From contig NC_085842.1 of assembly GCF_035594765.1 (NCBI RefSeq), positions 158,113,036 through 158,177,035 on the forward strand: DNA of 64,000 bases, in the 5' to 3' direction. Both the position numbers and the translations under genes were made by a program. Below are positions 55,171 to 56,464 of the stretch, in pieces. Each line of letters starts with the position of its first letter. Positions within the stretch are counted from its first letter, which is position 1. The notes beneath the pieces were generated by a model. It worked only from the letters and a program-made list of their open reading frames with translations. It was not told the DNA's origin and did no database searches. The stretch is from Anolis carolinensis (taxonomy: Eukaryota).

Positions 55171-55434
55171 ATCCTTGGAAATAATGAGGAGTATTGTTAA
55201 AACAGCTGCTTGCCAGCGCTGTCGCCAGCGTTTCTCCCTCTCTCCGCGACCATTCCTAGCCTAACCCCATCCCTAAGGGCTTAGCTTTGCTTGATCACGG
55301 CGCCTGTAGTTCTACTAAGTACGAGACCAGCAGGAAACTCATAGGCCACGTGTTGTCGAAGGCTTTCATGGCCGGGATCACAGGGTTGTTGTATGTCTTT
55401 CGGGCTGTGTGGCCATGTTCCAGAAGTATTCTCT

Positions 55435-55475
55435 CCTGACGTTTCGCCCACATCTATGGCAGGCATCCTCAGAGG
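55435..55475 (-). ncRNA. Minimal type I hammerhead ribozyme motif, antisense in SPRYD4 intron 1
   Basis: Reverse complement reads CCTCTGAGGATGCCTGCCATAGATGTGGGCGAAACGTCAGG. Confidence 0.7.
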
Positions 55476-55784
55476 TTGTGAGGTATGGAGAAACTAGGCA
55501 AGGAAGGTTAATATTTATCTGTGGTGAGTCCATGATGTGAGAAGTGCAAATGATCTTTGGATGATGCTGGCTAGGACTATTAGCTGCTGCAGTTCAAAAT
55601 ATTCAGTGCTGCAGGCAGCTATCACAGGAAATTTAGATGGAATGAGCATTTGAGTGCCCCCAACATAATGGTGTGCCAAGGCTGCTCTGCTGAGTGTCCT
55701 TTGTATTCCTGTGTGCACCTATGTGTGGCATGGAGCAGTATGCTTTGCATTCTACCAACATTCTATCTATCCTAAACCTCGCAA

Positions 55785-55825
55785 CCTCTGAGGATGCCTG
55801 CCACAGATGTGGGCGAAACGTCAGG
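55785..55825 (+). ncRNA. Minimal type I hammerhead ribozyme motif, sense within SPRYD4 intron 1
   Basis: CCTCTGAGGATGCCTGCCACAGATGTGGGCGAAACGTCAGG, core intact. Confidence 0.7.
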
Positions 55826-56464
55826 AGAGAATACTTCTGGAACATGGCCACACAACCCGAAAGTGATAGGCCATGATTTCTCCGTATCCGAAATAGAATA
55901 AACCGCCCCTTCCAGCCACACTGCTTTCAAGATATCGGAGCTCTAATCAATGTTATCATTTCCTCTTTGGCTTTGCAAGGTCTAGTTATTTTTTCCATCA
56001 TAGATAGGCCCATTGAAAGAATGGGACTTAAATAGCTAAGACTTATCATGTCCCATTGATTTAGAGCCTTGTCCCACTGCACTGTTATTCCCTTTTCATT
56101 ACAATGGAAGCATTCTGTGGGGAAAGGTAACCCTTTTCCTCCAGCTGTACTTGACTTGAGCACAGATGTTGGTAGGGCCCAGTCATGCTTCACTGTTAGA
56201 GCACTATTATTCCACTTTAGCTGCCAAGGCAACCGCCTGAATCTTACTCAGGTTCCAAAAAACTCTTAAAACTTACTTTAAAAAGAAAGCTTTCAGCTGA
56301 CTGGGTGTTCTGATATAAACAGATGAGGGCACTTGGATGGCTCCCAGATACCCTTGATTTTAAGATGCGATAGGTTTTAAAAAAATATTCAGGTTTTATG
56401 TTATCAGCACTGTCGAATATTTCATTTTAATATGTACTGTTTTAATGTTTGTGTTGTTATATTT

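Follow-up and report, generated by a model that had tools for sequence, protein, structure and literature searches.

Does a pair of hammerhead ribozymes on opposite strands of a short intronic insert regulate the gene that carries it, or does the insert record how a transposable element came to be integrated? The first intron of SPRYD4 in Anolis carolinensis raises this question. We analyzed a window of 64,000 nucleotides (assembly GCF_035594765.1, contig NC_085842.1, positions 158,113,036 to 158,177,035 of the forward strand; all coordinates below are those of the window), for which an earlier note had proposed a double-hammerhead cassette that might act on SPRYD4 pre-mRNA as a self-silenced ribozyme or a folding-dependent switch. 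The insert is almost certainly a head-to-head insertion of a Poseidon (PAc-type) Penelope-like element (PLE) with passenger ribozymes. The block of apparently captured DNA between its arms carries more weight than any aspect of the insert as a ribozyme switch.

Anatomy and identity of the insert

The host gene was delimited by its matches to Anolis sagrei. The coding part of exon 1 occupies 55075-55165 on the plus strand, ends at a GT donor at 55166, and matched A. sagrei SPRYD4 at 27 of 30 positions (90%; tblastn). The coding part of exon 2 (59209-59756, plus strand; acceptor AG ending at 59208) is 95% identical to A. sagrei SPRYD4, which was the top match of 251 for the exon 2 protein. The insert starts 183 nt past the exon 1 donor. 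This distance and both exon matches bear out its original placement in SPRYD4 intron 1, about 180 nt past the donor. On the plus strand of the insert there are three donor-like GT(A/G)AG sites and neither a poly(A) signal nor an acceptor-like site. Around the gene, a AAGATGGCGG-type motif, which we take to be YY1-like, occurs in four copies in the SPRYD4 promoter (54885-55082), the last of them at the start codon. Upstream of SPRYD4, two aquaporin (MIP family) genes lie on the minus strand, opposite to it (27952-33502 and 45157-47754), and a 1.3-kb self-inverted match with 93.7% identity (29206-30529) is a large palindromic element with an aquaporin exon on each side.

The insert spans 517 nt (55349-55865) between exact plus-strand copies of ATAGGCCA at 55341-55348 and 55866-55873; a third copy occurs at 57213 in the window. 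The target site duplication (TSD) is 8 bp long, or, as read from the sequence, 10 nt if 55349-55350 are included, at the cost of one C/T mismatch. Within the insert, inverted arms at 55397-55484 and 55776-55863 are complementary at 85 of 88 nt (a second inverted-repeat search scored them as 93 nt at 95%), and a single long hairpin is predicted for the region (z = -16.1; none of 100 shuffles was as stable). In public contigs, the right insert junction was spanned by at least 31 letters on each side in two of four runs, and the left junction was crossed by 27 letters in three of the four, the threshold of the tool being 31 letters. Because contigs span the junctions, the insert is not an assembly artefact. 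Among the 15 joints listed of 288 in the four runs, none was an empty-site joint. The 517-bp insert, its 8-bp direct repeat, and its 88-bp inverted arms thus hold as first described. The description of the whole as one element cassette holds for its coordinates but not for its content, as the element proper ends at 55350 and the 230-nt center is non-element.

Copy A lies on the minus strand and comprises the pLTR and ORF start, from -76 to +84 relative to the ORF (55383-55542; ATG at 55466), followed by a PLE tail, ORF +85 to +117 (55350-55382). Compared by eye, ORF +1 to +117 is identical at 116 of 117 positions to the Poseidon_Ac template printed in PMC11167929, and the homology of copy A to PAc stops, again by eye, near -80. 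The available part of that paper places the starts of PAc reverse transcription (RT) at a stem-loop at +111-118 and describes an optional tail between two start sites. The end of copy A at 55350, which corresponds to ORF +117, falls inside this 111-118 region, at the distal published start. Copies C, D, and E in the window have their 3' ends near +84. Copy B, on the plus strand (55776-55863; ATG at 55794), is an inverted, 5'-truncated pLTR that runs from ORF -18 to +70. At the inversion junction it is preceded by three filler bases (55773-55775, plus strand), which are unlike the flank of the stub described below (copy C) and, except for one base, unlike the element. Arm B ends at +70, where there is no published RT start, and the two bases beyond it are accounted for by neither the element nor the TSD. 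At 55864-55868, past these two mismatched bases, the first TSD bases (ATA) stand in register with element +73 to +75, which suggests that the second arm was primed by microhomology.

In the accessible text of PMC3846280 and PMC8557442, PLE insertions are described with an inverted, 5'-truncated 5' copy, a one-sided tail of 30-40 bp, and a TSD of 8-10 bp. An inverted, 5'-truncated copy and a TSD are both present here, and with the one-sided 33-nt tail the insert has the layout usual for PLE insertions. Its sequence, tail, inversion, and TSD place it in the PAc truncated-insertion class. An autonomous ORF with RT and GIY-YIG domains is lacking, only 39 codons of the ORF start being present, and the insert is a truncated, non-autonomous PLE stub. 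With PAc as described in PMC11167929 it further shares the position of the hammerhead and a tail at the RT start. Unlike PAc, it is non-coding, has an inverted second copy, and holds, in place of the pLTR upstream of -76, local DNA that was very probably captured.

Copies of this family are numerous, and anole population data include 16,208 Penelope insertions, according to the available part of PMC7561263. We laid four public contig sets on 54900-56400 (71,314, 33,199, 47,759, and 14,213 records) and found that the element arms matched 14,000-71,000 contigs per run. Among the 24 rows of loose ends listed of 1,327, ends piled up at 55350 in all four runs (257, 262, 404, and 108 records) and at 55383 (+84) in run X13 (140 records), and those at family end points carried mixed AT-rich flanks. 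Of the 15 joints listed of 288, 13 linked an antisense arm to a sense arm at other positions, several of them in three or four runs. These mark head-to-head junctions of other family copies, and fold-back library artefacts may contribute to them. The inverted hammerhead pair is an ordinary by-product of Penelope insertion in anoles. A 28-nt pattern of the PLE family had no match in viral and metagenome contigs.

Among the 13 head-to-head joints listed, the sense arm started twice at 55823 and once at 55825, directly at or 2 nt past the predicted hammerhead cut site. Two of these three had 3-nt microhomology, and none of the 13 began further downstream. We considered whether inverted arms start there more often than elsewhere and rejected the idea; the excess was not significant, and microhomology or display bias may explain it. 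In run X20, which we guess to be RNA, A>G or T>C changes at 55425, 55455, and 55821 reached 7.5-9.7%, compared with 0.3-2.7% in the other three runs. For a run with no matched DNA, this excess is a hint of A-to-I editing that would be family-wide and not locus-specific. The same run contained a 270-nt contig that exactly matched the hairpin loop (55507-55776), with empty adjacent intron bins.

Two older PLE remnants also lie in the window. A second head-to-head pair, from an older subfamily (12977-13823), had no TSD that we could find, and its plus-strand copy lacks hammerhead stem II and the cut site, deleted at a short ATGC repeat. Copy D (53553-54400, minus strand), 1.1 kb from the SPRYD4 CpG island, is a longer, decayed PLE that reaches back into the end of an endonuclease-like ORF and has core-damaging changes; Pfam did not recognize its endonuclease-like tail.

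Structure and predicted silence of the hammerheads

Each arm contains an intact hammerhead core (CTGAGGA...GAAACGTC), one per strand, as the earlier note had claimed: at 55788-55822 on the plus strand and at 55472-55438 on the minus strand, the latter (55438-55472) being the core of copy A and antisense to SPRYD4. The SPRYD4-sense copy is a minimal type I hammerhead (55785-55825, plus strand) with a stem I of CCT/AGG, a stem II of 6 bp including two G-U pairs, and ACGT at 55818-55821. The structure check confirmed that stem I has 3 bp (CCU/AGG) and that the predicted cut falls after C55822 (ORF +29), in agreement with the PAc cut 26 nt past the start codon (PMC11167929, available part). The ACGU formerly read as stem III is present at its place, yet it forms no separate helix and represents the minimal, no-loop form. 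Linked variants at 55449-55450 convert both stem II G-U pairs into Watson-Crick pairs in a minority of family copies, supporting stem II. The Rfam covariance-model check that the earlier note had named went against it, with no hammerhead family reported at E ≤ 10 in scans of 1601 nt and 81 nt.

As far as the available text of PMC4209133 describes the minimal type I hammerheads of metazoan PLEs, the insert shares their conserved core, an extra base before a long stem II, the G10.1-C11.1 pair in stem II, the palindromic 15.2-16.2 positions of a no-loop stem III, and the arrangement in opposite-strand pairs, which that text already notes at distances of 100-700 bp. The proximal stem I is 3 bp in the insert compared with 4-5 bp in the Schistosoma families, and nothing else essential differs. 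The same source concurs with the initial suggestion that Penelope-type minimal hammerheads are believed to work as dimers, and it reports no detectable cleavage by a lone minimal hammerhead from Schistosoma.

Intact cores need not be active ones. The two arms are predicted to form a duplex of -178 kcal/mol, in line with the earlier view that pairing with the antisense arm would sequester the sense hammerhead. Reaching the active fold would carry a predicted penalty of 81.3 kcal/mol with the other arm present and of 6.1-9.3 kcal/mol for the sense hammerhead alone; as equilibrium predictions that leave aside proteins and folding kinetics, these penalties are not switch-like. According to the available part of PMC11167929, the PAc hammerhead, which is nearly identical to those of the insert, cleaved only with PAc protein present, hammerhead mutants left insertion in vitro unaffected, and the cut site was neither a start nor an end of any RNA-seq read. 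DNA cleavage and extension by PAc in vitro required the first 172 ORF nt of the RNA, and sense arm B, which reaches only +70, falls short of this. Because the cores lie on opposite strands, a transcript holds one sense core, and no dimer can form in cis. Because the antisense arm is transcribed first and would pair with the sense arm, no cleavage of SPRYD4 pre-mRNA is expected. Judged by predicted folding and by analogy with PAc, both hammerheads of the insert are likely inert passengers, and the intron would be spliced out of SPRYD4 pre-mRNA as usual.

We find it scarcely credible that in some folding state the sense hammerhead cleaves SPRYD4 pre-mRNA and so serves as a regulatory switch. The core is intact in both arms, and the insert junctions recur in up to three of four runs from different studies, with contigs unbroken there. 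Intact cores are, however, unsurprising in a copy about 1-4% diverged from consensus, and such inverted pairs are common in the anole genome, judging from the 15 joints listed of 288. The dependence of the PAc hammerhead on PAc protein, the missing RNA ends at its cut site, the undetectable activity of the lone Schistosoma hammerhead, the lack of a cis dimer, and the predicted penalty of 81 kcal/mol in the cassette all stand against cleavage. The proposal of a cassette or switch acting on SPRYD4 was accordingly abandoned in view of the protein requirement, a fold penalty that is not switch-like, and the ordinary layout.

We also considered the insert as a non-LTR retrozyme and rejected this assignment. 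Like these elements, as described in the available text of bioRxiv 10.64898/2026.07.22.740005, it is non-coding and has a PLE-derived type I hammerhead. Retrozymes are same-strand tandem units, whereas the insert is an inverted pair with cores on opposite strands, and copy A has no internal tandem repeat.

The central block and its donor stub

The center of the insert (55543-55772) is very probably not PAc sequence but a copy of the upstream flank and left TSD of another, older PLE stub in the window, copy C, which lies 19.6 kb from the insert. Positions 55383-55772 match 35368-35757 at 95%, far past the part shared with PAc. Stub C (35585-35769 with its TSDs, plus strand) consists of PLE -76 to +85 (35597-35757), has no tail, and is enclosed by exact 12-bp TSDs at 35585-35596 and 35758-35769, for which the naive chance is about 1e-5. 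Because its own TSD bounds the element at -76 to +85, the sequence at 35368-35584 (plus strand), which lies some 2 kb upstream of an aquaporin gene on the minus strand, is flank of C. In the insert, the left TSD of stub C recurs at 55543-55554 (minus strand), and in the window this 12-mer is found at 35585, 35758, and 55543 only. Next to it, 55555-55772 (minus strand) corresponds to 35368-35584. Over the whole 230-nt block, TSD copy included, there are nine differences from stub C. Since copy A holds the left TSD of C and the DNA beyond it, the polarity runs from C to A. The insert thus presents non-element DNA between pLTRs, inside one TSD and with an identifiable donor.

Contigs were consistent with this picture. 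The block appears to be low-copy, with a depth near that of its flanks (about 33 compared with 22-33 in run X13 and 8-16 compared with 5-7 in run X14) where arm bins exceeded 1e5 in both runs, bearing in mind that contig depth is not copy number, that filters drop records, and that run X16 was too uneven for depth. Six of the seven interior differences listed in contigs were stub C alleles.

Alternatively, the block could be 5' sequence of a pLTR subfamily that is rare and either non-autonomous or divergent. Copies A and C would then both have inserted from a single master whose 5' end is fixed. The match between A and C does end at one point, -306, but a shared end is automatic if A is a partial copy. 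The flank of stub C also has a weak, above-shuffle similarity to older pLTRs when its TSD is included (30 of 1,000 shuffles reached the score, compared with 0 of 1,000 for a positive control); for the flank itself, local scores against D, E, and F were reached by 159, 64, and 94 of 1,000 shuffles. We read this similarity as a faint hint of junction microhomology or of a decayed element remnant. With nhmmer, neither the flank of stub C nor the block matched any other pLTR in the window at E ≤ 10. Moreover, the exact 12-bp TSD of stub C sets its 5' boundary at -76, contigs over the block show essentially only the A and C alleles, and two independent insertions 20 kb apart would be improbable. 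Taken together, we consider the subfamily explanation quite unlikely.

Two other accounts of the boundaries were set aside. The -306 end of copy A as a diverged post-cleavage repeat (scores reached by 36 and 2 of 1,000 shuffles) was rejected because the TSD of C explains the boundary. A SINE cut at 35368, as which we had presumptively labeled the left flank of stub C, is not needed (best nhmmer E, 0.012).

Chimerism, timing, and known parallels

Stub C was not the only source of copy A. Because it abuts its right TSD at +85, it could not supply +86 to +117 of copy A, and because it has no tail, the insert is a chimera of the 3' end of a young element and locally captured DNA. Copies A and C differ at 6 of 38 sites in +46 to +83 and at 13 of 351 sites upstream (Fisher P = 0.006, with the +46 boundary picked after viewing the data). 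At +58, +66, and +67, C has the alleles of the older copy D, unlike A and B, which agree with PAc. At -18, copy A has the PAc base and not that of C. On these alleles, the putative crossover is located between -76 and +57. The anole genome is roughly 1.8 Gb, so that a donor only 19.6 kb away indicates a template that was physically close, either DNA or nascent RNA. Stub C is antisense to both neighboring aquaporin genes, and thus no known plus-strand transcript covers the donor.

An RNA-level chimera would have required a stub C transcript and PAc RNA to form a hammerhead heterodimer, to be cut at +29/+30, and to be joined crosswise before reverse transcription. The allowed crossover interval does include the cut site, the core of C is intact, and dimer action has been proposed for minimal hammerheads (PMC4209133, available part). 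Yet an interval 130 nt wide gives no specific support, the PAc base at -18 in copy A is not what C would have supplied, nothing would direct a free RNA to a target as near to its source as 20 kb, and hammerhead mutants did not affect insertion in vitro in the accessible text of PMC11167929. We therefore hold an origin of this kind to be highly improbable.

On balance, we lean toward a head-to-head PLE insertion with inert hammerheads whose 230-base center was acquired in the course of integration through a homology-guided template switch, a reading drawn from one locus. According to the available part of PMC11167929, PAc is a predicted dimer that cleaves both strands and extends them. We infer the order and timing of events as follows. 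PAc would cut both target strands and prime cDNA on the element RNA at ORF +117, as its biochemistry suggests. The growing strand would then move, between -76 and +57, onto the homologous stub C, giving the chimera seen in the alignment; its template, C DNA or nascent plus-strand RNA, would be copied through the left TSD of C into 217 flank bases. The other target strand would prime a second copy, from +70 to -18, and the two ends would be joined with three filler bases, leaving the 8-bp TSD.

Capture could instead have followed insertion, and this is the main rival: the center of the original palindrome would have broken, and one of its ends would have invaded the homologous stub C, been extended by 230 bases beyond the shared part, and been attached to the other arm by end joining. 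Inverted repeats are fragile, and such repair would leave a final sequence identical to that of capture at the time of insertion. The donor distance of 19.6 kb suits DNA-level repair, as do the antisense orientation of stub C to both aquaporin genes, with no known plus-strand transcript there, and the three filler bases at the joint. The block differs between A and C by 3.9% (CI, 1.8-7.3; 9/230) and the arms A and B by 3.4% (CI, 0.7-9.6; 3/88), a likeness that fits one event, if weakly, as the intervals are wide and later repair is also compatible. Insertions with unrelated DNA enclosed by pLTRs in a single TSD have been described for PLEs in the accessible text of PMC3846280, which counts against later repair. 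We regard repair after insertion as possible but unlikely. If the block was copied from C, then capture during insertion rather than later seems, from the sequence, moderately probable.

The closest parallels come from Penelope elements of the rotifer Adineta vaga, for which the available part of PMC3846280 describes capture of an NRPS gene, Pen1 spacers, and unrelated sequences between solo pLTRs. These captures and the insert share unrelated DNA between pLTRs inside one TSD. The insert differs in that it comes from a vertebrate, involves only 230 nt from a donor 20 kb away, has its polarity fixed by the TSD that the donor carries, and combines two element copies in one chimera. With the PLE insertion unit, as far as PMC3846280 and PMC8557442 describe it in their available parts, the insert shares head-to-head copies, a 33-nt one-sided tail, and an 8-bp TSD; unlike that unit, its spacer consists of host flank that maps to a donor, and its junction has no palindrome. 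LINE-1 twin priming and template-switch chimeras, as described in the accessible text of PMC13174262 and PMC10760644, likewise have an inverted 5' segment, foreign 5' sequence, and one TSD. In contrast to those, the arms of the insert overlap in element sequence, priming would be internal, and the foreign part would come via a nearby homologous stub. In the open-access literature on PLE transduction and template switching, we found no PLE insertion whose donor had been mapped to a nearby stub.

The formation of inverted PLE units and the keeping of introns by these elements are stated to be unresolved in the available part of PMC8557442. PAc is the one PLE that is active in vitro. Because donor, direction, and crossover interval are all given by the locus, the pattern can be counted genome-wide and reconstituted with purified PAc. 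It is a tentative and rather doubtful generalization that Penelope integration includes a step in which nascent cDNA invades a nearby chromosomal pLTR stub and copies host DNA beyond it. If true, the SPRYD4-intron insert would be a dated, polarized fossil of that stub-invasion step, and a DNA-templated step would account for the movement of intron-containing sequence by Penelope. Any old stub would then be a handle for the duplication of local host sequence, and should captures of this kind prove frequent and local, PLE stubs would drive the duplication of host DNA over short ranges in the genomes of reptiles.
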